A stretch of 51,067 nt of DNA from Candidatus Methanomethylophilaceae archaeon (GCA_007117455.1 SKGM01000023.1:1-51067), one strand, 5' to 3'; numbered from the stretch's first letter, positions 13,829-49,037 are shown. The notes: generated by a model not told the origin, from the sequence alone. Made by a program: numbers and translations.

Positions 13829-13844
13829 GGCCACGGTGGTCGAC

Positions 13845-14537: not shown

Positions 14538-14572
14538 CCTTTTCTCAAAAATTACATTCGTGAAGTGATACT

Positions 14573-15280: not shown

Positions 15281-15285
15281 TTGTA

Positions 15286-33036: not shown

Positions 33037-33152
33037 TATTCGTACTAGGGAGGGTGTGTTATTAATATGAGCGTCTTTTCTTTTAATACGCTAATCTGTA
33101 TTAAATTATATACCAAGGGTTTTGTTATTAACGGGCTATAGATTGGAAGGAA

Positions 33153-33186
33153 TAGTTAACTATTGTTTGCGAATTAGTAAACTATT
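33153..33186. repeat. two 12-bp direct repeats (TAGTTAACTATT / TAGTAAACTATT) 22 bp apart, candidate regulator binding sites
   Basis: 11 of 12 positions identical. Start-to-start spacing is 22 bp (two helical turns). The first copy contains the 8-bp palindrome AGTTAACT. Located in the AT-rich divergent control region. Confidence 0.4.
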
Positions 33187-33407
33187 TATATTATGTGTAT
33201 ATGCGTTTTTCTTTTCTTGGCCTATTGGCTACTAATATTTTGGTTATTGTGGTCATTTTTTGCATTAGTATATAAAAGAAAAAACCATTTTACTTGTATA
33301 TCTTATAGGTTTATCTGGATATTACATCCATCCATACTGTATTCTTTTAATATTGAAAATAGGGTGTTCAATCTAGAGGCGGTAGGAGATCCGTCATAAG
33401 GAGGAAA

Positions 33408-34052
33408 ATGATGAGCAAAGAGGATATATTGAACGGTTTGAGCGAGGCGGTGGTATTGGGCAAACCTGACCAATCCAAGATGTTCGCTCAGAGGGCGATT
33501 GACGAGAATGTCAATCCTCTGGAGGCCATCAACAACGGCCTGGTGAAGGGGATGTCCATGGTGGGTGACAGGTATGCTGCAAGAGAGGTTTACCTCCCTC
33601 AGGTCCTGATGTCCGCCAACACCATGTACGCAGGACTGGACTTGCTTCTGCCGATGATACCTAGCGAGGATCTATCGGACAAGAAGAGAGTTATCATCGG
33701 TGTTGTCGAGGGCGATGTCCACGACATAGGCAAGAACATTGTCAAGACCATGATGACCGCCGGCGGTTTCGAGGTCAATGACCTTGGAAAGGACGTGCCC
33801 ACAGAGACATTCATAAGCACCGCAGAGTCCTATAAGACCGATGTGGTCGCGATGAGCACGCTGATGACCCCGACCATGGACGGCATGAAGGATGTCGTGG
33901 ACGGTTTGGTGGAGAGCGGTTACCGCGCCAACACCAAGGTCGTCATCGGAGGACCGCCGACATCCCCGGACTTCGCTGAGGAGATCAAAGCGGACCACCG
34001 GGATGCCAACGCCCAAGATTCGGTGGCATGGCTCAAGGAGGCGCTGTTTTGA
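33408..34052 (+). CDS. methyltransferase cognate corrinoid protein (MtaC/MtbC/MtsB family)
   Basis: 214 aa. B12-binding motifs DVHDIGKNIV (DxHxxG), MSTLMT (SxL) and VVIGGPP. Strong AGGAGG Shine-Dalgarno upstream. Confidence 0.9.
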   Translation: MMSKEDILNGLSEAVVLGKPDQSKMFAQRAIDENVNPLEAINNGLVKGMSMVGDRYAAREVYLPQVLMSANTMYAGLDLLLPMIPSEDLSDKKRVIIGVVEGDVHDIGKNIVKTMMTAGGFEVNDLGKDVPTETFISTAESYKTDVVAMSTLMTPTMDGMKDVVDGLVESGYRANTKVVIGGPPTSPDFAEEIKADHRDANAQDSVAWLKEALF

Positions 34053-35134
34053 ACCACATCGAGAGGGCTATGGCGGCACTCACCGACGGAGAGGCTGACC
34101 GCCTTACGACGTACCCGATTGCCTGTGGCGTCAACCGCAAGCTCCTCGGTGACAACGTTACCTACGCCGAATGGTGCCGGGACCCCAAACTTTTCGCGGA
34201 CGCCTTCGTCGCCGGACAGAAGTACTTCGACTTCGATTTCGCAATAGGCCTTATGGACCTTTCGGTCATGGCTGGCGACCTCGGAGCGCACGTCCGGATG
34301 GATGATGAGAACACACCTTTTGTGGACAAATACATCGTCAACGATCTGGAGGACTACGAGAAGCTCGAGGTTCCAGATATAAAGGCTGGTCGGACTGGCG
34401 TCCTTATCGAGGGTACCCGTCTGTTCACCGAGAAGCTCAAGGACGAGGTCATCTGCGCCGCATTCCTGGAGGGGCCACTGCTGGCCCTCACCCAGTCCGC
34501 GGGAGCGGAGAGGGTGTTCATGGACATGTTCACCAACCCCTCAGCCGTACACGCTGGGTTGGAAACCATGACCGAGTTCGACGTGCAGATGGTGGAAGCA
34601 TTCAGTGAGACGGGCGCACCTGGGCTGGTCTGGGACTACCTGTGGGGCAACTACTCCTGTCTGGGAGACAAGGAGTATGATGAGTTTGAGGGTGGATCCA
34701 AGTACGCCGGTAAGCTGAACAAGCTGGCGGTGGACCTTGGATTCGCCAACTGCGTCCACAACTGTGCTGACCTTCCTCATCTGGACACCCAGATCAAGAA
34801 GTTCAAGCCCGCCATCTACAGCATGGCCTACTACCCTCTGATACCTGACTCGCCCAGCGCGGGTGAGACCATAGAGAAGGGCTATGCAGATGAATGTCTC
34901 TTGGCTGGGAACATCGACCCCCAGTTCTTCATCCGCGCTAGCGAGGAGAAGATATCCAAGGTCACAGCGGACCTTTGCCAAGAGGTCAAGACCGCACTCT
35001 GCAAGAAGGGACTTAACTCCCGCTACTGCATTGCCAGCGGTTGTGAGGTCCCACCGGACCGCGTCACAAAGCTGGAGAACATCAAGGCGGTTGTGGACGT
35101 TACCAAGGAAGAGGGCGTCCTCGGGGACTGCTGA
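34028..35134 (+). CDS. URO-D family methylcobamide methyltransferase (MtaA/MtbA/MtsA-like)
   Basis: 368 aa. Zinc ligand motif VHNCAD (H-x-C) and a downstream SGCEV cysteine, as in MtaA-type enzymes. The start is uncertain (ATG 34028, TTG 34049 or ATG 34070). Confidence 0.85.
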   Translation: MAQGGAVLNHIERAMAALTDGEADRLTTYPIACGVNRKLLGDNVTYAEWCRDPKLFADAFVAGQKYFDFDFAIGLMDLSVMAGDLGAHVRMDDENTPFVDKYIVNDLEDYEKLEVPDIKAGRTGVLIEGTRLFTEKLKDEVICAAFLEGPLLALTQSAGAERVFMDMFTNPSAVHAGLETMTEFDVQMVEAFSETGAPGLVWDYLWGNYSCLGDKEYDEFEGGSKYAGKLNKLAVDLGFANCVHNCADLPHLDTQIKKFKPAIYSMAYYPLIPDSPSAGETIEKGYADECLLAGNIDPQFFIRASEEKISKVTADLCQEVKTALCKKGLNSRYCIASGCEVPPDRVTKLENIKAVVDVTKEEGVLGDC

Positions 35135-35194
35135 CCGGAAACCATTTCTTTTCTCAAACCTCTTCCAAACCCCTTAAAAAAGAATGTGATAATC

Positions 35195-35866
35195 ATGAAG
35201 GTCTCGCAGATAGCAGGATTCCTGGGGAGCGGAAAGACTACCGCCCTTATGAAGATCGGAGAAGGGTTGGTGAAAAAGGGTTGCCGCATCGCCATAGTCG
35301 TTAACGATGTGGGGGAGATCAGTATAGACTCCAAGTTCGTGGAGGCCAATGGCCTTGAGGCGAGGGAGATAGCCGGAGGCTGCATCTGCTGTCAGATAGC
35401 CGGTTCCTTCGCTGAGACCCTGGTCAAGCTGCACGAGGGGTTCAACCCTGAGATCGTTATCGTGGAACCGTCCGGCGTCGCCATACCTTGGGGGCTTAAG
35501 AGGGCGGCAGAGTACTCGGAGGCCAAATCCGACATGTCCATAGAACACGCCCCAGTGATCACATTGGTGGACGCCACCCGTATAGACATGCTGATGAAGG
35601 CCGTCAGGCGTCTGGTCGAGACCCAGATACGCGAGGCCGATGTTTGTTTCGTCAACAAGGTCGATGCGGCCAAGGCCGAGGATATCGCCAAGACGGAGGA
35701 GCTTATCCGCAACATAAACCCAAGGGCGGAGATAGCCCACCTCTCCTCTGTGACTATGGAGGGGATGGACCTGATATATGACATAATTGTGAATAGGATA
35801 TCACCGCGTTACGACGATGCGGTGGAAGAGGAGCTCCTGCGTAAGGAGTACGACAAGAGGGGATGA
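35195..35866 (+). CDS. COG0523-type G3E GTPase (CobW/ZigA-like metallochaperone), GTPase domain only
   Basis: Walker A GFLGSGKTT, metal-binding GCICC (CxCC) motif, VEPSG, NKVD. No CobW C-terminal domain in this ORF. Confidence 0.85.
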   Translation: MKVSQIAGFLGSGKTTALMKIGEGLVKKGCRIAIVVNDVGEISIDSKFVEANGLEAREIAGGCICCQIAGSFAETLVKLHEGFNPEIVIVEPSGVAIPWGLKRAAEYSEAKSDMSIEHAPVITLVDATRIDMLMKAVRRLVETQIREADVCFVNKVDAAKAEDIAKTEELIRNINPRAEIAHLSSVTMEGMDLIYDIIVNRISPRYDDAVEEELLRKEYDKRG

Positions 35867-36330
35867 GAATGTCCGACGACCACGACCAACTTCACCTGGA
35901 CCTCCATAGGGCCGTGGATGAACTGGGTAAATACGCCATTGTTCTCCATGTCTCATCAGAGGAGGATGTTCCGAAGAGTGAGATATACAGATTCATCAAC
36001 CACATCATGAAACGCTCTGTCCAGGAGTGTATGGCGAACGGGGCGGACATCGTCGGGCATGTCAAGTCGTTCCTGGAGTGCCCTGAGGGCAACATCATGG
36101 GCAGCATAGTCGAGGCCGACCAGGAGGAAGTGGCGATGAAGGACTCCCTGAAAGCGGACCATCTGCGTAACTTCGAGTTCACGATGCATGTTATCGTCCA
36201 TGGCATTTGGGACGACGTGGTCCGGGACCTCACACGTTCCATACTGGACGAGGTGTTTGACGACTATTCTATGGATTTCGAGATATTGGATGACCATTAC
36301 GAGCTGGAAAAGGGAATGGACCATCACTGA
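35863..36330 (+). CDS. hypothetical His-rich protein, possibly a detached CobW C-terminal-like domain
   Basis: 155 aa. ATGA overlap with the GTPase gene. His/Asp-rich termini (DDHDQLHLDLH ... DDHYELEKGMDHH). The CobW_C resemblance is only a by-eye pattern. Confidence 0.5.
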   Translation: MRMSDDHDQLHLDLHRAVDELGKYAIVLHVSSEEDVPKSEIYRFINHIMKRSVQECMANGADIVGHVKSFLECPEGNIMGSIVEADQEEVAMKDSLKADHLRNFEFTMHVIVHGIWDDVVRDLTRSILDEVFDDYSMDFEILDDHYELEKGMDHH

Positions 36331-36339
36331 GGTATTGAA

Positions 36340-36660
36340 ATGATAGGGACTGAGGGATTCTATGATGCGATGATGAGTAAGGGGTTCTCGCCTGCGACAA
36401 TCCGCTCACTTAGGAAGTTCACATGCCCCGACTGCGGGTTCGAGTTCTCGATGATATATGCCAGGACCATAGCCTGCCAAGGCTGCTCCGAGGCCATGAA
36501 GGACTGTCCCAAGGTCAGATGCGCCAAATGCGACCTGGAGATCTGGATAAGGGACACTCCTGAGGTCTTCGGAAAGAACCATGAGAGACTTATGGCCGAT
36601 CACATTTCCAAGGTTGTCACGAAGTACAACCGGGACATGGGATGGAGCGGCAGGAGGTGA
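36340..36660 (+). CDS. hypothetical Cys-rich (zinc-ribbon-like) protein
   Basis: 106 aa with C-x2-C-x14-C-x2-C-x6-C-x4-C-x2-C. Confidence 0.55.
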   Translation: MIGTEGFYDAMMSKGFSPATIRSLRKFTCPDCGFEFSMIYARTIACQGCSEAMKDCPKVRCAKCDLEIWIRDTPEVFGKNHERLMADHISKVVTKYNRDMGWSGRR

Positions 36661-36664
36661 GTTC

Positions 36665-38680
36665 TTGTCACTGGGTCTAGGCATAGATACGGGAGGGACA
36701 TACACCGATGCGGCCCTCTTTGATTTCACATGTAACGAGGTGATAGCCAAGGCCAAGTCCCTGACCACCCGGGATGACCTCTCAATAGGGATCTCCAAAG
36801 CAATCCTCAACATGTCCAGCGACCGTCTCCCAGAGGTGGAACTGGTATCAGTGTCATCCACACTCGCAACCAACTCCATAGTCGAGGGGAAGGGTTGCAG
36901 GGTTGCCCTCCTGGTCATAGGGAGGGACTACGACCGTTCGATACCTGTGGATGTGGTTACCAAGATAGCTGGAGGTCACAACCTTGCAGGTAACGAGGCT
37001 GAGCCTCTGGACGCTGAATCGGCAGCCCGTTTCATACAGGATCATGCGGATAAGGTGGACGCCTTCGCGATCTCCTCATATCTGAGCGTTAGGAATCCTG
37101 AGCATGAGGACCGGGTCAAGGAGATGGTGAAGAAGATTTGCTCCAAGCCAGTGGTCTGCGGGCACGAGCTCTCATCCAGCCTAGGCTTCAATGAACGCAC
37201 ACTGACCTCAGTCATGAATGCCCGTCTGATACCCATAATCGCCGAACTGATGGATTCTGTCAAGAAAGTGATAGGCGACCTGGGGATAGATGCCCCGATG
37301 ATGATAGTGAAGGGTGACGGCTCCATGATGGGGGAGAAAGTGGCAATAACCAGACCGGTGGAGACCATATTGTCCGGACCAGCATCCAGTCTTACGGGAG
37401 CGAGGATGCTGACCGGCGAGGATGACGGAATCGTGATGGACATGGGCGGGACCACCACCGATATCGGTATCCTGCGTGGCGGACATCCTCGTCTTGATCC
37501 CGAAGGGGCTTTGATAGGAGGAAGGCGCACAAGGGTGCTGGCAGCCGACATATCCACCTCCGGTATAGGGGGGGACAGTCGCTTCGTTGTCAACGGCCGT
37601 AAGCTCATGATCACCTCTCTGAGGGTGATACCCCTATGCATCGGTGCAACCCAGATGCCTGACCTGATCGACAGGCTCAAACTGGCCGCCGATAGGGCAT
37701 CCAGATTCACTCCGGAGAGCTTCGATATCGACAACATTATCCAGGATGTGGAGTTCTTCGTGCTTCTCAAGGACAGGAGGGACCCCAACCTCTCCGACAA
37801 CGACCGTGCATTCCTCGAACTCCTCCATGAGGGTCCGCACTCCCTCTTGGAGGCCAACGAGAAACTGGGGATGCATCAGTTCTCATTCAATGTGAAGAGG
37901 ATGGAGGAGATGGGACTCATCACCCGTATGGGACTCACCCCCACGGACCTTCTGCATGCTGAGGGCTCCTATGTGGAGTATTCCGCGGAGGCCTCAAGGA
38001 TCGCGATAGAGCAACAGGCCAGACGTCTGGGGGTCGAACCTGGGGAGTTCATCGCCCTGGCGAAGAAGATGGTGATCGAGAAGCTGTCCATGGAACTGCT
38101 CCTCAAGTTGATGCAGGAGGAGACCGGCAAGGATGCCGAGGGAGTGGTGGCCTTGGACCTGTTACGGAAGTCGATAACCGGAACCGAGGGTAAGGACTTC
38201 GGTTGCCGTATCTCCTTGAACAAGCCGATCATCGGGATAGGGGCTCCTGTGGGAGCTTACTTCCCCACCATAGCGGAACGTTTCGACACCCGCCTCTTAC
38301 TGCCGGAGCATGCTGAGGTCGGCAACGCTGTTGGTGCCATAACCGGTAGCGTGGTGGAGAAGATGGATATCCTCATCAAGCCCAAGGCTGGTATGGGCAC
38401 CTCCGTGGACCCCCCTTGCACCCTTTTCTCCACCCTGGAGAAGCGGGAGTTCGATTCGGTCAGTGAGGCAGCTCGTTATGCGGTGGAGACCGGTAGCCGT
38501 CACGTGGACAATCTGGCCCGGGTGGCCGGCGCCGACTCCGTGGAGATAAAGGTGGAGAACCATGACAGCAAGTTCGGGTTCGGCCAGGATTATGACGGAG
38601 AGGTCCTTCTGGAGAAGCATATCCTGATCACCGCGGTCGGTAAGCCTCGGCAATTCTATGCTGGGGGAAGTTGCCGATGA
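36665..38680 (+). CDS. hydantoinase/oxoprolinase-family (ASKHA-fold) ATPase
   Basis: About 671 aa from TTG 36665, with GGAGGTGA 5 nt upstream. N-terminal GIDTGGTYTDAALFD phosphate-1 motif, plus a second ASKHA-like segment IGIGAPVGAYFP...GNAVGA. Confidence 0.8.
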   Translation: MSLGLGIDTGGTYTDAALFDFTCNEVIAKAKSLTTRDDLSIGISKAILNMSSDRLPEVELVSVSSTLATNSIVEGKGCRVALLVIGRDYDRSIPVDVVTKIAGGHNLAGNEAEPLDAESAARFIQDHADKVDAFAISSYLSVRNPEHEDRVKEMVKKICSKPVVCGHELSSSLGFNERTLTSVMNARLIPIIAELMDSVKKVIGDLGIDAPMMIVKGDGSMMGEKVAITRPVETILSGPASSLTGARMLTGEDDGIVMDMGGTTTDIGILRGGHPRLDPEGALIGGRRTRVLAADISTSGIGGDSRFVVNGRKLMITSLRVIPLCIGATQMPDLIDRLKLAADRASRFTPESFDIDNIIQDVEFFVLLKDRRDPNLSDNDRAFLELLHEGPHSLLEANEKLGMHQFSFNVKRMEEMGLITRMGLTPTDLLHAEGSYVEYSAEASRIAIEQQARRLGVEPGEFIALAKKMVIEKLSMELLLKLMQEETGKDAEGVVALDLLRKSITGTEGKDFGCRISLNKPIIGIGAPVGAYFPTIAERFDTRLLLPEHAEVGNAVGAITGSVVEKMDILIKPKAGMGTSVDPPCTLFSTLEKREFDSVSEAARYAVETGSRHVDNLARVAGADSVEIKVENHDSKFGFGQDYDGEVLLEKHILITAVGKPRQFYAGGSCR

Positions 38681-39300
38681 GGATCGCGGTCATCGCCTGT
38701 GACATATTCAAAGAAGAAGTAGAGGCACTGGTGGAGGGGGATGAGGATGTCGTCCACCTCGAGTTCCTCGAGTTCGGGCTGCACATCGAACCAGAGAGGC
38801 TAAGGGATGCGGTTGTGGAGAAGGCCAATGCCGTGGCTGACAAGGTCGACGCCATCATGCTCGGGTACTGTTACTGCCAGAGCCTCATGGGAGTCCTGAA
38901 GGACATAAAGGCCCCGGCGGAGATGGTCCACACCGACGACTGCATCGGAGTCTTCCTCACCCCTTCAGGGTATGCGGATGAGAGGCGGAAATGTGCAGGC
39001 ACCTGGTACAATTCTCCGGGATGGACCAACCTGGGCATCGAAGGTTCGATAAAGGAGTTGCGACTGGACACCGTTGCGGACGAGATAGACCCATTGGACC
39101 TGTTGCGCATGATGTTCCAGAGTTACTCAAGATGCTTGTTCATCGACACGGGAGTGGGGGACCTGGATAACCTGAAGGTCAAGTCGCAGGAGTTCGCAGA
39201 CATCATGGGACTCGAACACGAGGAGACGGTGGGCGGTTACGGGCTCCTTGCCGATGCGTTGCAAAGGACCAAGGACCTGGTGAAGAGCAGGGACTCCTAG
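38677..39300 (+). CDS. DUF1638 family protein
   Basis: 207 aa. MRIAVIACDIF...LEFGLH..PE.L...GYCYC...DDCIG pattern of DUF1638, a family typically found next to corrinoid methyltransferase genes. ATGA overlap with the upstream gene. TAG stop. Confidence 0.75.
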   Translation: MRIAVIACDIFKEEVEALVEGDEDVVHLEFLEFGLHIEPERLRDAVVEKANAVADKVDAIMLGYCYCQSLMGVLKDIKAPAEMVHTDDCIGVFLTPSGYADERRKCAGTWYNSPGWTNLGIEGSIKELRLDTVADEIDPLDLLRMMFQSYSRCLFIDTGVGDLDNLKVKSQEFADIMGLEHEETVGGYGLLADALQRTKDLVKSRDS

Positions 39301-41219
39301 GATCTGAGCCTATAGTGGGTATTGGGCACCATCAGCTCATAGCGGGTGCCCTCGCCGTGTTTACCGTTCTCGATGATGTTTATCCTGGTCACGTCCAATA
39401 TCTCTTTGACAAGGTACATGCCATCCGCCCCCAGGGAGGATGCCACGTCAAAGATGCTTTCCTTGATGTTGTCTGGCACCCCTTTACCATCATCCTCGTA
39501 CACCACCCGCATCCTTCCATCGGTTATGTTGAAACCGACCTTGATACTCTCTACGTTGTCATCATTCATGCTGAGAGCAATGATTTTCTCGAATGCTTTC
39601 GGCAGCTCGGGGTCAGCGAGTATCTCCAGGTTTCCTGTGTTGACCTCTAACATCTCCTCAGGGAGGGATAGGGTCAGGGAGGCCTGTTTGACAACATCGG
39701 AGATGCTCTGCCATTCCGGGTTCATGATTCCGACGTTCCGGAAATCCCGGGCGAATCGCATCCTCTCCTGGATACGGTTGGATGAGTCTATGATGCGGTC
39801 AAGATGATCCAGTAGTGCGGGCTCTTCCGCCATGGCTTTGAGGAAATTGACGTATCCCTTGATTATCTGAACCTGATTGGAGACCTCGAGGAACGTCATG
39901 CGCTCGACCACGTTCAGATGGAACGATGCCCTCTCGAGTTTCTCGAGTGAGCTCTCTATGTCGCTCATGTCCTCCAAGGTTATTATCGCCCCTTTGACCT
40001 CGTCCTTGCCGTTGATACGCGGTTGTATGGACACCTGGAGCGATACTGTCAGGTCGGTGGATTTGAAGCGTAGCTTATGGTGGGCGGCGACGCGGCTCCT
40101 GATTGACTCCATCACCGCCGAATACAGCTGGACGGTGAAGTCGCTCTTGTACTCAATGAGTCCTTTACCCACATGACCATCGTCAGATAGATGGTCCAGG
40201 AGTTTACGGGCCTTCAGGTTGCATTCCACTATCGCCCCTTGGCAGTCCACCACCATGATACCGACCGGTGCGAACTGGAGCATCTCCTCATATCTTCTCT
40301 CGGTCTCATACCTGGCCTCTCCGGACATCCTGCCCATGTATATCGAGGCCATGCCATCCATGAGGAGATTGAACTGGTTCAGGTCGGTGTTGTCATAATG
40401 ATCGGCCTTGTTGGCCACTCCGGCGGTACCGATGACCTTTCCTTCGTGCATAAGCGGGATCATCAGCAACCTCTTGAGACCGACGTGACCCTTGGGTATC
40501 CCTTTGATCAGGGGGTTGGGGGAGGCGTAGTCGTTTACGATTATGGCCCTCTTCTGGCGAACAGGTTCACCCCATATCCCGACCTTGTCCATCGGGTATT
40601 CGATGGGCTTCTCCTCGATACGGCACTCCCTCATGCCGGCCTGGGACCAGGAGTACATGGTCAACATATCCCTCTTCTCATCATAAAGAGCGAAATAGCC
40701 CATGCCGCTACGGGTCAGCTTCACGCTCTCTTCCAACACGAAATGCGCAACTTCCGAGAATCCGTAACGATGCATCTTGGCCAATCTTACCAGTGCCTTC
40801 AGACGGCGTTCGTTCAATGACCGCTCCTCATCTATACGGCGCTTCTCCACGGCAAGGACTATCTTGTCGGCCAGATCCGTGAAGAGTTCCCGCGGCGGGC
40901 GTTCCTTTATCATGTAGAAGTCCACGCCGAGGTTCATCGCCTCAACAGCGACCTCCTCGGAACCATTTCCCACCAGAGGTATGAAGGGGAAGTTGGTGCT
41001 CCTTCTAAGAAGACTACGGAACAGCGCCAGTCCATCAACGCCCGATGGAGGATTGTGGTCTGAGACGATGATGTCAGGGTTGAACCTCTCTATCATCTTG
41101 TCGACCTCCTCCGGGTCGAGACAGGGTACTACCCTGATGTCCCGATTGATCCTCGTTAGGAACGTCACGGCCATGTCCGAGAACGTCTGATCCTTCTCGA
41201 CTAGAAGCACCCTATACAT
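39297..41219 (-). CDS. REC-GAF-PAS protein with degenerate histidine-kinase core (apparent pseudokinase)
   Basis: 640 aa, paralogous and collinear with the next gene. Receiver Asp present (IIVSDHNPP). GAF present (GIWGEPVRQKRAIIVNDY). At the H-box position it has FLEVSNQ where the paralogue has RHDVMNQ. N-box Asn is replaced (ALSMNDD versus ENTLRHG). The G2 box is weakened. Confidence 0.8.
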   Translation of the reverse strand: MYRVLLVEKDQTFSDMAVTFLTRINRDIRVVPCLDPEEVDKMIERFNPDIIVSDHNPPSGVDGLALFRSLLRRSTNFPFIPLVGNGSEEVAVEAMNLGVDFYMIKERPPRELFTDLADKIVLAVEKRRIDEERSLNERRLKALVRLAKMHRYGFSEVAHFVLEESVKLTRSGMGYFALYDEKRDMLTMYSWSQAGMRECRIEEKPIEYPMDKVGIWGEPVRQKRAIIVNDYASPNPLIKGIPKGHVGLKRLLMIPLMHEGKVIGTAGVANKADHYDNTDLNQFNLLMDGMASIYMGRMSGEARYETERRYEEMLQFAPVGIMVVDCQGAIVECNLKARKLLDHLSDDGHVGKGLIEYKSDFTVQLYSAVMESIRSRVAAHHKLRFKSTDLTVSLQVSIQPRINGKDEVKGAIITLEDMSDIESSLEKLERASFHLNVVERMTFLEVSNQVQIIKGYVNFLKAMAEEPALLDHLDRIIDSSNRIQERMRFARDFRNVGIMNPEWQSISDVVKQASLTLSLPEEMLEVNTGNLEILADPELPKAFEKIIALSMNDDNVESIKVGFNITDGRMRVVYEDDGKGVPDNIKESIFDVASSLGADGMYLVKEILDVTRINIIENGKHGEGTRYELMVPNTHYRLRS

Positions 41220-41273: not shown

Positions 41274-43184
41274 TTAAGTCTGCCTGTGTATTCCCGGGGG
41301 GAATGATAACTTGAAACAAACCCCTTCGCCCTCTATGCCGGTCTCCTCGATGCGGACATCCGTCATCGAGAGTATCTCCCGAACCAGGAACATCCCAAGT
41401 CCGGTGTTCCTCCCCACCCCCTTTTGGAATATGTTCTGCTTCTGATGCAGGGGGACCCCTTTTCCATCATCCCGGTATATTATGGTCAATGAACCGTCCT
41501 CCTCAAGCTCACCGCCGATCCAAACCTGACTCACATCGCCTCCATGCCGCAGGGTGTTCTCGAAGAGATTGTAGAATACCTTGTTGAGGGCCGAGTCTGC
41601 CAGTACCTCTAAACCATCCAGGTCCACCTGGAGGTCTATGCCATGACTGTCAGATATTCCCGCGCGGACCTCATTGTGCAGGTTCAACCATAACGGCCGG
41701 TGTACCCCAAGGGACTGATAGGTTCGGGAGAAGTTCATCTGATCGGATATGATATCGAGTATGTGCTCCATACGGGACAAAAGTCTCTCTGACATCCCCG
41801 GATCTTGGACCTCCTTCATGATGCCAATATAACCATAGAGTGCCTGGAGCTGGTTCATCACGTCATGGCGGGTTATCTGATCCACGGTCTTTAGCTGATG
41901 GGCGGTCCTCTCCAGGGTCTTGTTGGCTTCGTACTCTGAACTTATATCATCCATGACGAGGATGGCTCCATTGAATCTGTTAGATTTATCCAGCAACGGA
42001 GAGGCGGTGCTGCGGATGTGGATATGTTCATCCCCTCGCATATGATGGAGTATCCTTTTGGACCCTGCAGGAAGCTCTCGGCATTCCTTGTACAGCTCCA
42101 TTATACCATTCGTGAGTTCATCGTCACAGACAAGGGCCGCGTTCCTTTGAATCCCGTTCCCCACCATGTTCATGAACAGGTCATTGGCGTCGACCAGTAC
42201 ACCTTCAGCATCCAGTAGGGCGACGGCCACGGGTATTTTCCTCATTATGGCCTCATACCTCTTCTCCGCCTCATGGAGCACCACATCACGGTTCGCCACA
42301 TCATAGAGGTCGCCCATGGAGTTCATGAGTAGTTGTAGATGGCGCAGGTCCCTCTCAGTGTAATCCTCATCTTTGTTGGCCACACCGCATGTGGCAACGA
42401 TCTTGCCTCTGTTGAATATGGGAATGGCCATCACTCGGTGGAGAGGTACGTGCCCTTCTGGAACCCCTTTTCTATACTGGCCATCTTTGGCATAATCGTT
42501 CACCATTATCGGCCTTCCTTGTCTGACAGGTTCGCCCCAGAGCCCAGTCTCATCCAGATTGTATAGTATAGGACGGTTCGAGGTACGACACTCCTTCATG
42601 CCCCCTTGTGACCAAGCGAACATGTTCAATGTCCTACCTTCAAGGTCAACCGTTGCGATGTAGCCAATTGTACTGGAGCTTATCTCCACCATCCTCTCCA
42701 ATACGAAGTGGGCCATCTCATGGAAGGGGGACTGACGCTTATCAGCAATCTGGACCATGGTCTGGAGCCGATAATCCGCCATCCTGGCCTCCCGGCGATC
42801 CCTCACCATTCTCGCAAGGCGCTCGATCTGACTTCCCAACAATAGGTGCAACTTTTCATGGTCAAGGTCCCTATTTGCATGACAATCGACACCCTGGCAG
42901 AGGGCCTCGGTCGAGAGGGTTCCATCATCGGATGGGGTCAGTATGATGACTGGAAAATCAGGATCCTGCTCCCGTACCTTTTTTATGACCTCTAGGGCAT
43001 CGGAAGCAGGAGGGTCGTGGTCAATCAGAAGGATGTCGGCTTTTGCTTTCATAAGGTCGGCCAAGGTACCAACATGGTCTATCAGCAGGGTCCCTATGTC
43101 GTTGTAAGATGAAGCCAAGGCTGTTTCCAGTCTCGAGAGCAGAACAGGATCGTTCCCTGCCAGGGCAACTCTGACCTTCCCCAT
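41274..43184 (-). CDS. REC-like-GAF-PAS sensor histidine kinase
   Basis: 636 aa. H-box ITRHDVMNQLQ, N-box FYNLFENTLRHG, G1 DDGKGV, G2 GLGMFLV. GAF with GLWGEPVRQGRPIMVNDY. The receiver-like N-terminus keeps its Asp (LLIDHDPP). Confidence 0.85.
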   Translation of the reverse strand: MGKVRVALAGNDPVLLSRLETALASSYNDIGTLLIDHVGTLADLMKAKADILLIDHDPPASDALEVIKKVREQDPDFPVIILTPSDDGTLSTEALCQGVDCHANRDLDHEKLHLLLGSQIERLARMVRDRREARMADYRLQTMVQIADKRQSPFHEMAHFVLERMVEISSSTIGYIATVDLEGRTLNMFAWSQGGMKECRTSNRPILYNLDETGLWGEPVRQGRPIMVNDYAKDGQYRKGVPEGHVPLHRVMAIPIFNRGKIVATCGVANKDEDYTERDLRHLQLLMNSMGDLYDVANRDVVLHEAEKRYEAIMRKIPVAVALLDAEGVLVDANDLFMNMVGNGIQRNAALVCDDELTNGIMELYKECRELPAGSKRILHHMRGDEHIHIRSTASPLLDKSNRFNGAILVMDDISSEYEANKTLERTAHQLKTVDQITRHDVMNQLQALYGYIGIMKEVQDPGMSERLLSRMEHILDIISDQMNFSRTYQSLGVHRPLWLNLHNEVRAGISDSHGIDLQVDLDGLEVLADSALNKVFYNLFENTLRHGGDVSQVWIGGELEEDGSLTIIYRDDGKGVPLHQKQNIFQKGVGRNTGLGMFLVREILSMTDVRIEETGIEGEGVCFKLSFPPGIHRQT

Positions 43185-43233: not shown

Positions 43234-44208
43234 TCAGCCCCTTTGAAGGTCCGTGGAGAATGTCCACATGCGTGGATATGTGCCCCTTTCCATGAAGACC
43301 CTCTCGGTTCTGACGGCGATGCCCCGCTTGGCCTCCTTGAGCCTCTCACCGGATATCGCGGCCTTGCCCACGGCGACCAGTTCCCCCCGGGAGGTGAGCA
43401 TTGCTACGTTCCCGCCCTTACGGATGCTCTCATCGTATTGAGCCAAGCCGGGAACAGCAAGGTCGGCGCCATGGCAGACGGCGTCCACGGAGGCGGTCTT
43501 CAGCACCACGCGGGGCAGATGGGATATCAGGTCCTCGACCGGCCTGACGATATCGTAGAGGGGTTCGGGACGCCCTCTCTCCTGCCAGAGCTCATAGGCA
43601 TCCTTCAACTGCTGGAGGGTCACAGCCTCCATCTCGGACATGGATCCGGACCGGGTCCTTCTGAGCTCCAGCATGTTCGCCCCCACCCCCAGCGCTTCAC
43701 CTATGTCGATGCAGAGTGTCCGTATATAGGTGCCCGCATCACAGGATACGCGGAATAGGACGTCCCTACCATCGATGTCCAGGAGATCAAGGGAGTGTAT
43801 GGTGCGTATTCGTAACTGACGTTTGACAGCTGAACGGAGGGGAGGGAACTGATAGATCCTTCCCACGAATTCAGAAAGCATCCTCCGCACCTCATCCTCC
43901 GACCGGTCCCGGTGAAGACGCATGAGGCAGACGTACTCCTTGTCAGCACTGAGCATCAGGTCGGTGAGCCGGACCGCCTTCCCCACGAATATCGGGAGTA
44001 CGCCGCTGACGTTGGGGTCCAAGGTCCCGCCGTGCGCGATGCGCTCGATCTTCATCACATCGCGCGCCCAGGAGGCCACCTGATGGGATGTCGGACCGCA
44101 GGGTTTGTCTAGGACTATGGCACCGTTGCGCAACAGTTCGCCCAATGTCCTGTCGGAGGGCCTCTTGCCATATCTATTGGGAACTGGGTCATCTGATTTC
44201 TGAATCAT
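43234..44208 (-). CDS. cbf5: H/ACA RNP pseudouridine synthase Cbf5 (TruB family) with PUA domain
   Basis: 324 aa. HGGTLDPNVSGVLPIFVG catalytic motif. Conserved position after cmk. Confidence 0.92.
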   Translation of the reverse strand: MIQKSDDPVPNRYGKRPSDRTLGELLRNGAIVLDKPCGPTSHQVASWARDVMKIERIAHGGTLDPNVSGVLPIFVGKAVRLTDLMLSADKEYVCLMRLHRDRSEDEVRRMLSEFVGRIYQFPPLRSAVKRQLRIRTIHSLDLLDIDGRDVLFRVSCDAGTYIRTLCIDIGEALGVGANMLELRRTRSGSMSEMEAVTLQQLKDAYELWQERGRPEPLYDIVRPVEDLISHLPRVVLKTASVDAVCHGADLAVPGLAQYDESIRKGGNVAMLTSRGELVAVGKAAISGERLKEAKRGIAVRTERVFMERGTYPRMWTFSTDLQRG

Positions 44209-44738
44209 GGCTGGACCCCTATCCTATCGACGATCTCATCAACGATTTGATCCGGCGTCTTATCAGCGGTGTCCACGACCATGTCGTAAACGCTAAGGTC
44301 ATAGAGGTCGATGCCATAGTACTGCAGATATCTCTTAGCCTCGGAAGCCTGACGTCGTACGATCGCCTCGGCCGCCTGTTGCAGGTCCTCATCCTCGCGA
44401 CGTCCCACCCTGGCCGCCCGAACCAATGGGTCGGCATCGAGATATACCTTGAATGCAGGGATCCCATGGCGTACCAGCATCTGCGCTGAGAGCCGTGATT
44501 CGAGTATTATGGAATCGGTGTCGCGGGCGATGTCCAGGATCCGCCTGTCGATGGTCTCGTCGATGGAGGGGTCCTGCTCAGCCAGGGAGCCGAAGTCCGC
44601 CAAGGTCATACCTTTCTCCTCGGCCATCTCACGGAATAGACGTCCGAAGACCACCGCGGGCAGGTCCAGTCGTTCAGCGAGAAGACCGCAAACGGTTGTC
44701 TTTCCTGAGCCCGGGGGCCCGCTTATGGTTATCCTCAT
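44205..44738 (-). CDS. cmk: cytidylate kinase (archaeal type)
   Basis: 177 aa. MRITISGPPGSGKTT P-loop. Collinear with archaeal COG1102 CMP kinases. Confidence 0.85.
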   Translation of the reverse strand: MRITISGPPGSGKTTVCGLLAERLDLPAVVFGRLFREMAEEKGMTLADFGSLAEQDPSIDETIDRRILDIARDTDSIILESRLSAQMLVRHGIPAFKVYLDADPLVRAARVGRREDEDLQQAAEAIVRRQASEAKRYLQYYGIDLYDLSVYDMVVDTADKTPDQIVDEIVDRIGVQP

Positions 44739-45406
44739 AATGCTTCGTTCCCCGCCGTCTCCGAATAATCCCTCAACTTCCTCTTGAACTGGAAGAAGCG
44801 TATGGTTCGGGTCAGGAGATGGCCGAAAGGTATGCTCACAAGGGTGTACACCAATATCCAGTTGGGGAGGACGTTGGTGTTGTTCAGGTCCACCATGGGT
44901 TGCCAGGGGACGGCTATGTATGAATCGGGCAGATTGAGTACGAAGACCGAGACCCAGGCGAATATCGGTATGATGAAGAGAAGCGTCAGCGGCAGAAGTT
45001 TCAGCTGCTGTGTGCTCATCTCCATCGATTTGGACATGATCTCCTGCTGGTGCTCGGTGAGCTTCTTGATCTTGTACAGGTTGTTGTCCAAACGGGCCTG
45101 TCTAAGTTCCTGGTTGAAAGCGCTCATAACCTTCTGGGACCGGGCCATGGCCACATAGTCGGTGAAGAACGAGCGGACGATTATGCTGAATGAGACCATC
45201 GTCAGACCGGCGAAGAGAAGGGTGAGCAAGGGGTACTGGTAATCGAACCCTATCAAGGGCTCGAAAGCCAGACCGACAAGGTTCCCAGTCATTGTCCTCA
45301 GGTTCTGGTCGAACATGATGAACATCGCCAGCACGAATATCATCAGGGTGGTTATCTTGGGCGAGGCCATCGGCTGTTGTGGTCCGGCACCTTGTGTCAT
45401 ATTCAA
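44735..45406 (-). CDS. DUF106 family membrane protein (archaeal YidC/Oxa1-like)
   Basis: 223 aa. TM helices flank a charged coiled-coil loop. Conserved position between secY and cmk. Confidence 0.75.
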   Translation of the reverse strand: MNMTQGAGPQQPMASPKITTLMIFVLAMFIMFDQNLRTMTGNLVGLAFEPLIGFDYQYPLLTLLFAGLTMVSFSIIVRSFFTDYVAMARSQKVMSAFNQELRQARLDNNLYKIKKLTEHQQEIMSKSMEMSTQQLKLLPLTLLFIIPIFAWVSVFVLNLPDSYIAVPWQPMVDLNNTNVLPNWILVYTLVSIPFGHLLTRTIRFFQFKRKLRDYSETAGNEAL

Positions 45407-46944
45407 TCACCTCCGAAGAACCCACGCAGCACCGGGTGCATCTCCATCATCTGCTCACGGCCCATGGCCTCATAGAACTGGATGAGTATGCCCACTGCCA
45501 GTAGCACTCCCGTGCCGGTGGCATTGCCTGTGGTCCCTATCAGATCGGCGCCGGCGGCAAGGCTGCCCACCAATGCCCCCGATATGACCGTCACCACCGG
45601 TATGTACCTCTCCAGGACCCTCTTGAGGACCCGGGGGTCCCGCCGGAATCCGGGTATCTGCATACCACTGCTCTGGATCTGCCTCGCCACCGCCTCGGGA
45701 CCGAGGTTGGTGGTGTTGACCCAGAATTTTGCGAAAAGGATCGACCCCAGTACCATGAATGAGAAGTATATCAGCACCCTCATTACGTTCTGCAATGTTG
45801 TCCGGTCGTTACCGTAGTTACCTGGGTCGAGTATGGGAAGTAACCAATCGTTGAGACCCATGGGTGCCGAGAGGTACCACGCCAGCCCTCCTGATGCTGA
45901 TGTCATGCCCGGCTCGAAGTACCCCAGGGCGGGGTTGCCGCCCAATATCGGCACCTGACTCAGCGTCTCACTGGTGTAGAACAGCAGGGCGAACATGCTG
46001 ATGTTTGCCAGGAGGGCGGCGATTAGGATGACGGGTATCACGCTGGCGTAGATGAGTTTCAATGGATACCTACCACGGGCCCCCCTGGCTGAGCCATGGG
46101 CCAAGGGAAGCTCTATGCGGGAGGATTCGACGTAAGCCACGAAGAAGAAGATCACTATGGTCCCCACCAAAGCGATCAACGGATTTGGCTCCTGCAGTAT
46201 TATCTGTTCGTAACCACCTTGGGACATCTCGGCCAGTGATTGCGAGCTGATCAAGTAGAGGGTCTTGGGTATGGTACCGGCGGGAGGATTGGAAGCACTC
46301 ACCGCGGCGGCGGAATCTATCGGGTACCAATTAAGGGTACCAGTGAACAGAGCCTCGGACACACCAGCGGCTATGAACAACGATACGCCGCTTCCTATAC
46401 CCCATTTCGAGACCACCTCGTCCATGAGGAATACCAGATAGGCGCCGAGACATAGCTGCAACACTATGATGAAGCGCGCCATGGACGTCCCGACGGCGGC
46501 TATGAATTCTTGTGAAGGGACTAGGAAGCCGAACACCTGGGGGACCGCCGTGAATATTATCATGACGATGACCAGGAGCTTCTGGGTCGACTGGAAGACC
46601 GCCTTGTCGCTGCTCTTGGTGAGGTCGAGGTTGATTATCTTCGCACCCACGAAGAGCTGCAGTATGATAGAGGCGGTGACGATCGGTCCGATCCCCAGCT
46701 GCATCAGGGTTCCTGAGGCGCCAGCCATGATGGTGCGGTACTGGGCGAACATGTCCAACGTCTCATCGGTGTCCAGACCGTAGAGATAGACGTTGGTCAT
46801 GACGAAGTACAGCACCAGGATGACCGCTACCCAGATAAGCTTGGTCCGGAAGTGCACATGGCCCTCCGGACGGGTGACCGCCGGTAGACGGTCGGCGTAA
46901 GGCTTTATCTTGTAGAGTGCGCTCTGCTGCTCGGACATTCCCAT
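45403..46944 (-). CDS. secY: preprotein translocase subunit SecY
   Basis: 513 aa, 10-TM pattern, follows L15 in the conserved operon. Confidence 0.95.
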   Translation of the reverse strand: MGMSEQQSALYKIKPYADRLPAVTRPEGHVHFRTKLIWVAVILVLYFVMTNVYLYGLDTDETLDMFAQYRTIMAGASGTLMQLGIGPIVTASIILQLFVGAKIINLDLTKSSDKAVFQSTQKLLVIVMIIFTAVPQVFGFLVPSQEFIAAVGTSMARFIIVLQLCLGAYLVFLMDEVVSKWGIGSGVSLFIAAGVSEALFTGTLNWYPIDSAAAVSASNPPAGTIPKTLYLISSQSLAEMSQGGYEQIILQEPNPLIALVGTIVIFFFVAYVESSRIELPLAHGSARGARGRYPLKLIYASVIPVILIAALLANISMFALLFYTSETLSQVPILGGNPALGYFEPGMTSASGGLAWYLSAPMGLNDWLLPILDPGNYGNDRTTLQNVMRVLIYFSFMVLGSILFAKFWVNTTNLGPEAVARQIQSSGMQIPGFRRDPRVLKRVLERYIPVVTVISGALVGSLAAGADLIGTTGNATGTGVLLAVGILIQFYEAMGREQMMEMHPVLRGFFGGD

Positions 46945-46960
46945 CCCTTGTTTTTCTAGA

Positions 46961-47386
46961 TCATTCCGCTACAACGGTACCGCCCAGGGACTCGATCTTC
47001 TCCTTGGCGATGGCCGAGGCCTGGGGAACGGTGACGTCCATGGGGACGTTCACGTTTCCCTCGCCCAGGAGCTTGTCGATGCCCATCTCTTTGAGGTCGA
47101 CCACATAGCGGTCCCCCTCCTGGCGGGCGAAGCCGCCGTCCAGCAGTCGCGACAGGCCCTCCTGGAGCTCGCCTACGTTCATGGTGGTGTTGGCACCGAC
47201 CATGCTCTGGGGCCTCTTGAAGCCCCTCCTGCCGAAATGGTCGCGGTCGTATTTCAACATGCGCAGCCTCTTGTGTTTCAGGAGACCGGCGTTGCCGTGA
47301 CCGCCGATGAGACCCGCACCCCTACCGGCCTTCTTACCGCGGCCGTGGGTCCTGGAGCCTCTTAGTTTCTTGGTCCTGCTTGGCAT
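46961..47386 (-). CDS. rpl15: 50S ribosomal protein L15 (uL15)
   Basis: MPSRTKKLRGSRTHGRG... Gly/Arg-rich N-terminus. Confidence 0.95.
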   Translation of the reverse strand: MPSRTKKLRGSRTHGRGKKAGRGAGLIGGHGNAGLLKHKRLRMLKYDRDHFGRRGFKRPQSMVGANTTMNVGELQEGLSRLLDGGFARQEGDRYVVDLKEMGIDKLLGEGNVNVPMDVTVPQASAIAKEKIESLGGTVVAE

Positions 47387-47396
47387 TTGTTCACCT

Positions 47397-47861
47397 CTAA
47401 AGCATCCTCATGATGAGGTCGTTGATCGCTTCCCCGCGGTAGCCGAGGGCGCCACCCGAGCGGTAGGCGCGCTTGATGCCCTCATAGCCCTTGACAGGAG
47501 GAGCCAGGCGGAAGACGGGTTTGGCACCCAGCCTGTTCATCTTGGCCTTACCCTCTGCGAGGGCCGAGGCCATCTCCTCCACGGAGGAGTATCCGGACTC
47601 CTTAAGGAAGACGTCGTCTATCTCCTTGTCACCGGCCAGACGGCCACGGCTGCGGATCATCTCCGCAACCGTCTCCGGACTGACCTCGCCCCATGTTATG
47701 TAGTCCTTGGACTTCTGGAGCATACCTATGGTCACATCGTCCTCGGGGACGATGACGCAGTGGTTGACACGGGTCAGGTTGAGCAGCTCCATGGTGCGGG
47801 AGATCTCGTGCCTGACATCCGCCTGTCCACGGACCCTTATCACAGCGAAGGCCATGCTCAC
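47397..47861 (-). CDS. rpl30: 50S ribosomal protein L30 (uL30)
   Basis: AVIRVRG....R.EI..TMELLNL.R.NH pattern. Confidence 0.95.
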   Translation of the reverse strand: MSMAFAVIRVRGQADVRHEISRTMELLNLTRVNHCVIVPEDDVTIGMLQKSKDYITWGEVSPETVAEMIRSRGRLAGDKEIDDVFLKESGYSSVEEMASALAEGKAKMNRLGAKPVFRLAPPVKGYEGIKRAYRSGGALGYRGEAINDLIMRML

Positions 47862-48535: not shown

Positions 48536-48536
48536 T

Positions 48537-49037
48537 TCAATCAGCCTCCATCTTCTCGATCAGTGCGTCGAAGGCGGCTTCCATGCCTTCGTCGATGTGC
48601 TGTCCGCGGATGCGTTCCTCGGCGGGCCTGACATCCTCACCATGAGGTATGTCCATGCCCGCATCGACCAGCCCAGCGAGGGCGGAGAAGCATGCCGACC
48701 CTTTTACCGGCTTCTGCCTCCCGATGTCGAGAACCGCGGACTCTATCCCCTCTGCCAGGGCCCTCTTTCCGGCCAGATAGCCGGTTAGGTAGGCGGCGGG
48801 GAGGTTCGAACCGGAGTACTCCCATCCCATCTTCCCCAAGTCCTTGGAGTGAGCGGATGTGAGTATCTGGTCTCCATTCATGTCGAATGCCACCAGCTGC
48901 ACGCTGGTGTGCTTCAGGGAACGACGGACGACGGCCCGGGGGAGGCCTCCTCTGAGGAGCCTCTGTCTTGAGCGGTAGTCCGTCCTGCCCTCCTTCCTGC
49001 GGCGGAAGGGGACCTTGTATCTAGGTCCTTTAGCCAT
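48537..49037 (-). CDS. rpl18: 50S ribosomal protein L18 (uL18)
   Basis: MAKGPRYKVPFRRRKEGRTDY N-terminus. Confidence 0.95.
   Translation of the reverse strand: MAKGPRYKVPFRRRKEGRTDYRSRQRLLRGGLPRAVVRRSLKHTSVQLVAFDMNGDQILTSAHSKDLGKMGWEYSGSNLPAAYLTGYLAGKRALAEGIESAVLDIGRQKPVKGSACFSALAGLVDAGMDIPHGEDVRPAEERIRGQHIDEGMEAAFDALIEKMEAD

Follow-up and report, generated by a model that had tools for sequence, protein, structure and literature searches.

An Mts-like corrinoid methyltransferase pair of Methanomassiliicoccales and a candidate ATP-dependent module for corrinoid-protein maintenance

The stretch of DNA analysed here (51,067 nt, hereafter the window) comes from a Candidatus Methanomethylophilaceae archaeon (GCA_007117455.1 SKGM01000023.1:1-51067) and carries, at positions 33408-39300, a cluster of seven genes encoding a corrinoid protein, a zinc methyltransferase of the URO-D family, a COG0523 GTPase of the CobW kind, a His-rich protein, a Cys-rich protein, a hydantoinase-A-like ATPase (HYD) and a DUF1638 protein. 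We propose that the cluster places a two-component methyltransferase of the Mts type beside an ATP-dependent module that would maintain its corrinoid protein, a reading to which we give a probability of about one half. The methyltransferase pair is of a known kind that has already been annotated, and we regard its Mts-type identity as probable. The accessory layer, that is HYD with DUF1638 and their partners, is new, in the sense that it is not described in the searchable literature. An earlier note on this DNA, made from the sequence alone, had listed the seven genes with their motifs, overlaps and gaps, and all of them were recovered as open reading frames (ORFs) on the + strand (Table 1). 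For every cluster protein examined, over 100 conserved homologues were found, so that the ORFs are real, far beyond chance. The source lineage is Methanomassiliicoccales, nearest to metagenome-assembled genomes (MAGs) of Methanomethylophilaceae, and the closest homologues of the URO-D protein are 83-90% identical to it.

The corrinoid protein and the URO-D methyltransferase

The translation of the first gene contains the motifs of a cobalamin-binding corrinoid protein, namely DVHDIG (DxHxxG, His-on), STL (SxL) and IGG (GG), and it scores 198 bits against NCBIfam TIGR02370, slightly below the cut-off of 215. The URO-D gene probably starts at the TTG at 34049, which follows an AAGGAGG ribosome-binding site, overlaps the corrinoid stop codon as TTGA and gives a protein of 361 aa, as long as its closest homologues. 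The TTGA overlap suggests that the two genes are translationally coupled. The segments VHNCAD and ASGCEVPP of the URO-D protein supply an H-x-C...C motif, and HNCAD and SGCEVPP, which we take to be the zinc ligands, align with HVCGN and PGCGIAP of MtaA.

Against the models of established methyltransferases, the URO-D protein reaches 40 bits for MtaA_Meth (cut-off 400), 57 for MtbA (600) and 73 for TIGR01463, which covers MtaA/CmuA (235). It is 19% identical to the MtaA of a Methanosarcina genome (L053 in our numbering of loci), a bona fide member that scores 493 bits as MtaA. With scores so far below the equivalog cut-offs and so low an identity to a true MtaA, we rejected a plain MtaA or MtbA identity. 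Among the 316 homologues of the URO-D protein, the best 120 are 64-90% identical, and those named by their source are all from Methanomassiliicoccales MAGs; one homologue is labelled 'MtbA' by its source. It is a small clade: of the 1.84 billion representatives searched, 24 reach E <=1e-30, and these include a few full-length relatives at 40-50% identity and a 636-aa fused form at 39%. A sequence search of the PDB with the URO-D protein found no close solved structure (best E ~1e-3).

The nearest informative relatives come from the same Methanosarcina genome, which encodes two proteins with an N-terminal corrinoid domain fused to a C-terminal MT2 domain. Compared with the window proteins, their corrinoid domains are 46-47% identical and their MT2 domains 37-39%, and the fused genes are flanked by Msr/FilR1-type regulators, the bona fide MtaA and RamA. 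The zinc motif is kept in all the aligned proteins (the window URO-D, the fused proteins and MtaA), and in a neighbour-joining tree, which carries no support values, the clade of the window URO-D groups with the fused corrinoid-MT2 proteins. The suggestion of the earlier note that the system is Mts-like is supported by these comparisons, and the enzyme does not fall inside a plain MtaA/MtbA clade, an outcome that the note had named as a refutation. Fused corrinoid/MT2 proteins of Methanosarcina have been described as the MtsD/F/H (CmtA) family (PMC7374477; 10.1101/548461), of which the two fused proteins of L053 are presumed to be orthologues. By the measures given here, the window pair is the split counterpart of the fused proteins of Methanosarcinales.

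In its composition, the window pair resembles MtsA/MtsB of M. barkeri, with a corrinoid protein, a zinc enzyme of the MT2/URO-D family and no separate MT1, and differs from MtsD, MtsF (CmtA) and MtsH of M. acetivorans, which hold both parts in one polypeptide. The host is an H2-dependent methyl reducer without tetrahydromethanopterin, and a CmtA-like role with methyl-tetrahydrosarcinapterin is therefore not expected (PMC7374477). In line with what the earlier note had read from the cluster, a Pfam scan of 30 of the larger window ORFs found no gene resembling MtaB, MtmB, MtbB or MttB, a few other ORFs of >=120 aa lying outside that scan. Nor was an MT1-type gene present in the annotated loci of five relatives (L001, L002, L083, L085 and L086).

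The earlier note had suggested an Mts/Mtp-like system. As a reading of the pair this is sound, and it is not new. The pair has been listed as 'mtsAB homologues' in Methanomassiliicoccales, with a predicted use of dimethyl sulfide (DMS) or methanethiol (PMC4153887, PMC7824343, PMC5011839, PMC10804542), and such annotation is routine in the order (PMC4153887, PMC10673518, PMC10804542).

HYD, DUF1638 and their recurrence beside corrinoid genes

The Hydantoinase_A match of HYD covers positions 1-140 of 291, the C-terminal half being too divergent for Pfam, and the TTG start at 36665 is the one used by the gene call of the collection (P0121). An AlphaFold2 model of HYD (mean confidence, pLDDT, 84) was compared by Foldseek over its full length with known structures. 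It aligned at TM 0.56-0.60 with acetone carboxylase beta, N-methylhydantoinase, acetophenone carboxylase and caprolactamase alpha (5m45_B, 9h03_A, 5l9w, 6yra_A), and weakly, through the ASKHA core, with the RACo complex 4c1n. The best NCBIfam and PDB sequence matches are the A subunits of caprolactamase and oxoprolinase. Across 85 homologues, the ATP motifs DTGGT, DxGGTTTD and GGDS are invariant or near-invariant (>=78/85) and one Cys alone is widely conserved. Since the ASKHA motifs are kept and conserved Cys residues are limited to this one, HYD is predicted to use ATP and to have no Fe-S centre.

Two better known identities were considered for HYD and rejected. It is not a RamA/RACo protein, given that it matches Hydant_A_N and Hydantoinase_A instead of RACo_C_ter (PF14574) and has no Fe-S domain. 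Nor is it GlmL/MutL, with which it shares only the ASKHA phosphate-1 region; the match to PF13941 (31.7 bits) is confined to residues 34-94, and the NCBIfam GlmL model gives 28.7 bits, with a cut-off of 475. HYD is like HyuA, OplA, AcxB and CapA in its full-length architecture and ATP-binding motifs, and unlike them in having no HyuB-type partner and in being encoded with corrinoid proteins, DUF1638 and RamA. A Hydantoinase_B protein was found neither in the window cluster nor in the five annotated relatives' loci, the wider set of 80 loci described below not having all been scanned with the HyuB model.

The DUF1638 protein carries the conserved motifs AC, LH, Y..C, DCI and GT..GW, with three Cys and one His within them, and a PDB sequence search with it returned nothing meaningful. 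In three loci from Armatimonadota MAGs (L035:9059-11959, L039:3212-6325 and L070:9017-11968), DUF1638 is fused to the N terminus of HYD in proteins of 960-973 aa. This arrangement mirrors the ATGA-overlapping HYD/DUF1638 pair of the window and, as a domain fusion, points to a physical interaction of the two proteins. DUF1638 also adjoins HYD in L003, L014, L027, L064, L077 and L086. Mutants of Phaeobacter inhibens in DUF1638 require methionine for growth, and a RamA-like protein co-varies with DUF1638 (PMC5764234); DUF1638 and RamA have been found to be induced on methylated amines (PMC12478193). The window is similar to the DUF1638 and RamA-like proteins of Phaeobacter, which serve a split methionine synthase, and to MecGH of the mec cassette, in that DUF1638 is encoded together with a B12-binding protein, and in those systems DUF1638 is needed for corrinoid methyl transfer in vivo (PMC5764234; PMC12478193; PMC9768040). 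The difference lies in the partner of DUF1638, which is RamA-like in the Phaeobacter and mec systems and a HyuA-like ATPase in the window and, as a fusion, in Armatimonadota.

The genomic partners of HYD were collected by scanning one genome per GTDB species with a HYD alignment. The best 80 loci were annotated with hidden Markov models (HMMs) built from recurrent neighbours. The neighbour families were verified by Pfam (MTTB, Pterin_bind, RACo, Met_synt_B12, BCCT), and key cases also by tblastn. Corrinoid or related genes are present in 23 of the 27 loci of Methanomassiliicoccales type sampled in this way, and the full set of corrinoid, URO-D, Cys-rich and HYD genes in about 19; the exceptions are mostly contig ends or a second HYD paralogue. 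When relatives were sampled through the URO-D protein instead, the Cys-rich and HYD genes were found in all complete loci (5/5).

Outside Methanomassiliicoccales, full-length relatives of HYD (residues 1 to ~661, 35-43% identity) occur at 55 loci. Their hosts include Sporomusa, Syntrophomonadaceae, Desulfosporosinus, Peptococcaceae, Anaerovoracaceae, Anaerolineae and other Chloroflexota, Armatimonadota, Desulfobacterales, Alpha- and Gammaproteobacteria, Methanosarcina and Methanolobus. Genes of corrinoid methyltransferase systems are present at 21 of the 55, counting MttB-family MT1, corrinoid protein, pterin-binding MT2, Met_synt_B12-like, DUF1638, RamA and fused URO-D families. In 18 of these 21 loci the nearest such gene lies <=500 bp from HYD, which makes random scatter unlikely. 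The linkage of accessory genes to corrinoid genes in other genomes, on which the reading of the earlier note depended, is thus conserved within the order and beyond it. Genuine RamA co-occurs with HYD in seven loci (L016, L053, L057, L061, L062, L069 and L073). In addition to the 21 outside loci, there are four (L037:8173-9966, L032, L042 and L074) at which HYD adjoins a protein of ~590 aa that is recognisable only by its C-terminal B12-binding domain. Loci of the L037 type (Anaerovoracaceae, Clostridia) have aminotransferase, SDR, aldehyde dehydrogenase and ABC transporter genes alongside.

In Methanosarcina and Methanolobus, a HYD-family gene adjoins the fused mts-type genes. The order in Methanolobus (L073:952-7283) is fused corrinoid-MT2, HYD, a thermosome/Cpn60 subunit, an MT2-like URO-D protein and RamA, so that a chaperonin is embedded in a cluster for corrinoid methyl transfer and activation. 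Published work holds further instances of the association: an MttB/corrinoid/MTII cluster of nine genes includes one for an N-methylhydantoinase A/oxoprolinase-family protein, and growth on glycine betaine strongly induces every protein of the cluster; 'HydA' genes are drawn, uncommented, in several bacterial glycine-betaine clusters (PMC9768040). No correspondence with the HYD family could be established for the hydantoinases MA4395 and MA4396, reported near mtsF (PMC11619418; 10.1101/2025.05.05.652248).

Within the order, the unit that accompanies the methyltransferase turned out to be composite. The earlier note had described five tightly linked accessory genes, and the tight junctions are there; the five form two separable modules, and an eighth linked gene, called C12 here, had been overlooked. 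The 'five-gene unit' is a core of Cys-rich and HYD genes with two movable add-ons, namely the CobW/His-rich pair and a variable partner, DUF1638 or DGC. The Cys-rich gene was found only in loci of Methanomassiliicoccales type, where it always stands immediately 5' of HYD in the order. All seven Cys of its product (CPxCGF...ACxGC...CPKVRCxKCD, that is CxxC, CxxC and Cx4CxxC) are conserved at >=90% in 21 orthologues. HYD is inverted in Methanomassiliicoccus-like genomes and lies on the opposite strand in L001, L010, L013 and L083. DUF1638 in relatives is adjacent, a few kb away or not in the locus. One or two DGC-domain (PF08859) proteins, often with a 373-aa HAD-like gene, follow HYD in L001, L005, L010, L011, L013, L015, L029 and L083. 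In other genera, DUF6951 genes are repeatedly found close to the cluster. C12, divergent from the cluster, has homologues beside the cluster or beside CobW/His-rich/DUF1638 genes in seven other loci (L003, L004, L006, L008, L010, L013 and L019).

CobW and His-rich genes always occur together, with the His-rich gene directly after CobW in the relatives that have it. The pair is absent in some relatives (L002, L007, L018 and L085), lies between URO-D and Cys-rich in others, and is found downstream of HYD in L006. The GTPase shows GSGKTT (Walker A), CICC (the CxCC metal motif), EPSG and NKVD (NKxD) in translation, and Pfam found no CobW_C domain in the polypeptide; the nearest NCBIfam model, 'CobW-related selenoprotein', gives 117 bits against a cut-off of 180. 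It shares the P-loop, CxCC and NKxD with COG0523 proteins (CobW, ZigA/ZagA/Zng1, YjiA) and with the wider G3E family (MeaB, UreG, HypB), and, like the COG0523 metallochaperones, is encoded beside putative metalloenzyme clients. Unlike them, it has no CobW_C in its polypeptide and is paired with a protein of an orphan family confined to this order. The His-rich protein has 123 homologues, most without a name, and those named by their source are all from Methanomassiliicoccales or Thermoplasmata MAGs. Seven His residues are invariant, and many members carry variable N-terminal tails rich in His and Asp. Its AlphaFold2 model (pLDDT 91) gave weak Foldseek matches to YjiA (probability 0.97-0.99, TMq 0.34-0.36) and to M20 dimerisation domains, and PF07683 (CobW_C) was not detected in 38 members of the family even at E <=10. 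The His-rich protein might conceivably be a split CobW_C domain, for which the modelled fold gives a weak hint and the sequence none. Pairs of a GTPase with a His-rich protein have analogues in UreG with UreE and HypB with HypA, and we infer that CobW and His-rich form a separate, order-specific, metallochaperone-like pair.

The description of the cluster as a 'self-contained' module is not supported: other loci of the order have RamA genes beside HYD paralogues. A second paralogue (48% identity) lies ~1.1-1.3 kb downstream of RamA in L016:1185-6106 and L057:6922-11995; a third group has no corrinoid gene nearby (L021, L022, L024 and L028). A CbiMNQO cobalt transporter and a Fur-family regulator stand beside the cluster in L083:13493-16763, and a BtuFCD-like ABC transporter, DUF1638, DUF3793 and a flavodoxin in L085:11504-16564. 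In Methanogranum (L002:1-5900), an ArsP permease, an ArsR-methyltransferase fusion, a low-molecular-weight phosphatase and a thioredoxin lie a few kb from the cluster. This locus also holds pyridoxal phosphate enzymes of Cys/Met metabolism (Cys_Met_Meta_PP, PALP) and an Rrf2 regulator, and the whole arrangement is not conserved in other loci.

Proposed function and the alternatives to it

In the proposed scheme, the separate corrinoid protein and the zinc enzyme of the MT2 family would form a two-component, Mts-type corrinoid methyltransferase. A methyl group would pass in a ping-pong manner, most likely from a donor of the methylated thiol (thioether) type, through the Co(I)/CH3-Co(III) states of the corrinoid protein to coenzyme M, to be used in H2-dependent methyl reduction. 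HYD, DUF1638 and the order-specific Cys-rich protein would use ATP to keep the corrinoid protein competent, alongside activators of the RamA type. They might do so by reactivation after oxidation to Co(II) or by loading or exchange of the cofactor, and the Cys-rich protein may serve HYD/DUF1638 as an adaptor for metal or redox chemistry. For the CobW/His-rich pair, the simplest guess is the delivery of Zn to the URO-D protein, and the alternative would be the handling of cobalt or corrinoid. The genes with their motifs and folds, their conservation and linkage, and the fusion are observations; substrate class, methyl acceptor and every accessory mechanism are inferred.

We consider it somewhat better than an even chance that HYD and DUF1638 act on the corrinoid protein, because a corrinoid protein with its reactivation genes is the sole element common to all partners of HYD. 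Confidence in any specific chemistry of the accessory proteins is low. A role of the accessory genes in maturation or activation would follow from guilt by association, one fusion and the published genetics of DUF1638. ASKHA ATPases are a known class of B12 reactivases (RACo/RamA, DdrA, GlmL), and the weak MutL/GlmL matches of HYD agree with this. HYD resembles RamA/RACo (RACE) in having the fold of an ASKHA ATPase, in its genomic association with corrinoid methyltransferases and, if the proposal is right, in coupling ATP to the restoration of an active corrinoid protein; it differs in belonging to the HyuA branch. Since it co-occurs with RamA in seven loci, HYD would be a partner of RamA or have a parallel function, and is not a RamA orthologue. 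In the related MtpC, strong reductants alone failed to reactivate the Co(II) form (10.1101/548461), behaviour that fits a need for extra factors.

A broader claim can be made more tentatively, at somewhat less than even odds: HYD and DUF1638 may constitute a previously unrecognised, ATP-dependent corrinoid accessory system distinct from RamA/RACo, elaborated in Methanomassiliicoccales with Cys-rich and CobW/His-rich proteins for one methyltransferase. Such a system might span Firmicutes, Chloroflexota, Armatimonadota, Desulfobacterota, Proteobacteria, Methanosarcinales and Methanomassiliicoccales.

Several points weigh against the proposed scheme. The one cultured relative tested, M. alvi Mx-05, has 'mtsAB homologues' and did not use DMS (PMC10673518), and this also tempers the Mts/Mtp-like proposal of the earlier note. 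MtpA, a member of the MT2 family, turned out to be a dedicated MT1 (10.1101/548461). A role of HYD as an Fe-S reductive activator is ruled out by the absence of a conserved Cys cluster, and the reducing power cannot come from HYD. Proteins of the HyuA type usually work with HyuB in phosphorylating small substrates. For the CobW/His-rich pair, the kinship to CobW_C amounts to a weak fold hint. About half of the HYD loci outside the order have no corrinoid gene detectable with our narrow HMMs, and some HYD paralogues of Methanosarcina stand beside RuBisCO III and Sua5; the HYD family is accordingly not exclusively linked to corrinoids.

The best of the alternatives, which we still regard as unlikely, is that the URO-D protein acts as an ordinary methylcobamide:CoM methyltransferase (MT2) or, in the manner of MtpA, purely as an MT1, with partners encoded elsewhere, so that the cluster would be incomplete as a two-component system. 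The specificity of the MT2 family is relaxed, MtpA proved to be dedicated to the MT1 reaction (10.1101/548461), and our view of the genome is limited to 51 kb. The homologue named 'MtbA' and the behaviour of M. alvi on DMS could be accommodated in the same way. For an ordinary MT2, however, the distance from true MtaA and the scores of 40-57 bits against MtaA and MtbA models with cut-offs of 400-600 are hard to reconcile. Moreover, the URO-D protein has its own translationally coupled corrinoid protein, and the nearest relatives fuse exactly these two domains.

It is less likely again that the pair serves sulfur or methyl housekeeping, for instance by exchanging methyl groups between the corrinoid protein and homocysteine, methanethiol or another thiol, in methionine metabolism or detoxification. 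Conservation across the order is very high (65-90%) whatever the substrate range, and the lack of growth of M. alvi on DMS (PMC10673518) agrees with this. Some neighbours also point in that direction: Cys_Met_Meta_PP, PALP and Rrf2 in L002, and PAPS reductase and rhodanese in L083. Core methionine synthases are known to take methyl groups from corrinoid proteins, but MesB has been reported as the methionine synthase of Methanomassiliicoccales (PMC7857596). The sulfur-metabolism neighbours vary between loci, and the pair is most closely related to the fused, catabolic proteins of the mts type in Methanosarcinales. Because MesB has been reported and the sulfur neighbours are not conserved, the idea of a methyl-corrinoid:homocysteine enzyme is kept only as a minor rival.

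Marginally behind this stands the possibility that HYD, alone or with the Cys-rich and DUF1638 proteins, acts on a small molecule, in substrate activation or in the repair of damaged corrinoid, and not on the corrinoid protein. The full-length HyuA fold (TM ~0.6), the invariant ATP motifs and the best matches to caprolactamase and oxoprolinase A subunits would suit such an enzyme. On the other hand, neither the window cluster nor the five annotated relatives' loci contain a HyuB, and the methyl donors of the systems found with HYD are unrelated (MttB-type quaternary amine, URO-D-type, B12-domain protein), the corrinoid protein being what they share. In addition, HYD is fused or adjacent to DUF1638, which is tied genetically to B12 reactivation (PMC5764234).

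That the accessory genes are neighbours through lineage-specific synteny alone, with no functional tie to the methyltransferase, is very improbable: gene order is rearranged between families, the strand of HYD flips and CobW/His-rich and DUF1638 are patchy, but the linkage outlasts these rearrangements throughout the order. It has independent counterparts in Firmicutes, Chloroflexota, Desulfobacterota, Proteobacteria and Methanosarcinales, and another in the fusion, and it is tight (<=500 bp) in 18 of the 21 loci outside the order that have corrinoid-system genes.

Layout of the cluster, its surroundings and significance

The genes downstream of URO-D are closely packed. CobW and His-rich overlap by ATGA, His-rich and Cys-rich are separated by 9 nt, Cys-rich and HYD by 4 nt, and HYD and DUF1638 overlap by ATGA. 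The one longer interval, which the earlier note had put at 60 nt, is the boundary at which the mobile CobW/His-rich pair is inserted, and it might act as a terminator or an internal promoter. The corrinoid ATG at 33408 has a GGAGGA ribosome-binding site on its 5' side and follows an AT-rich region, the 2-kb bin holding which falls to a GC content of 0.51. Rfam detected no riboswitch or RNA family within or upstream of the cluster. A promoter and terminator scan was discarded, since its bacterial consensus patterns are not applicable to an archaeon and yielded no more than shuffled controls.

Table 1. Features in and around the cluster, with positions counted from the first letter of the window.
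Feature	Position	Strand	Size	Basis or remark
Small conserved protein C12	32689..33036	-	115 aa	Motif DLNAxCxCGC...RFH...GASV; no Pfam match
AT-rich intergenic region upstream of corrinoid gene	33037..33407		~370 bp	Presumed promoter region, from sequence
Corrinoid (B12-binding) protein, MtsB-like	33408..34052	+	214 aa	Pfam B12-binding_2 5e-19, B12-binding 8e-26
URO-D/MT2-family zinc methyltransferase, MtsA-like	34049..35134	+	361 aa	PF01208, 144 bits, 8e-42
Spacer between URO-D and CobW	35135..35195		61 nt	T/C-rich, with A-rich TTAAAAAAG element
Short COG0523 (G3E) GTPase (CobW)	35196..35866	+	223 aa	PF02492, 2e-38, 132 bits
His-rich orphan protein	35863..36330	+	153-155 aa	No Pfam/NCBIfam match
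Cys-rich small protein	36340..36660	+	106 aa	No Pfam/NCBIfam match
Hydantoinase-A-like ASKHA ATPase (HYD)	36665..38680 (TTG start)	+	671 aa	Hydant_A_N, first half of Hydantoinase_A, weak MutL
DUF1638 protein	38677..39300 (ATG start)	+	207-209 aa	PF07796, 118.8 bits (cut-off 27), positions 1-160/161, 3e-34
Receiver-GAF-PAS-histidine kinase sensor protein	39297..41219	-	640 aa	Pfam
Receiver-GAF-PAS-histidine kinase sensor protein	41274..43184	-	636 aa	Same BLAST cluster (c7) as the first

The two sensor kinases, paralogous and convergent to the cluster, close the locus downstream. A kinase homologue lies 3' of the cluster in L003, L014, L018 and L086 and nearby in L017, and the kinases may regulate the cluster. 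In the remainder of the window, at 5415-11612 (- strand), genes for the large and small subunits of a [NiFe]-hydrogenase (MvhA/MvhG-like) adjoin one for an HdrA-like flavoprotein of 999 aa that contains several ferredoxin motifs; MvhA/MvhG with an HdrA-like protein is the electron-bifurcating module expected in Methanomassiliicoccales. A tRNA-Ser(GCT) at 413-499 (+) is the sole Rfam match in the window. Ordinary archaeal housekeeping genes are found at 13073-16796 (+; proteasome alpha and exosome Rrp4/Rrp41/Rrp42) and at 43234-50720 (-; a TruB/Cbf5-like gene, cytidylate kinase, SecY and ribosomal proteins).

Methanomassiliicoccales rank among the major methanogens that reduce methyl groups in the guts of humans and ruminants, and their 'mtsAB' genes are routinely used to predict methane formation from methylated sulfur compounds. 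Corrinoid methyltransferases stall when Co(I) is oxidised, and the loading and upkeep of the corrinoid are known only for activators of the RamA/RACo type. The function of DUF1638 has been a question since 2018, and HYD offers both a partner for DUF1638 and a testable candidate for the missing maintenance step. If the proposal is true, it may explain why some recombinant corrinoid proteins, such as MtpC, resist chemical reactivation. It would then also bear on in vitro reconstitution, on the annotation of quaternary-amine and methyl-sulfide demethylation and, possibly, on targets for methane mitigation.

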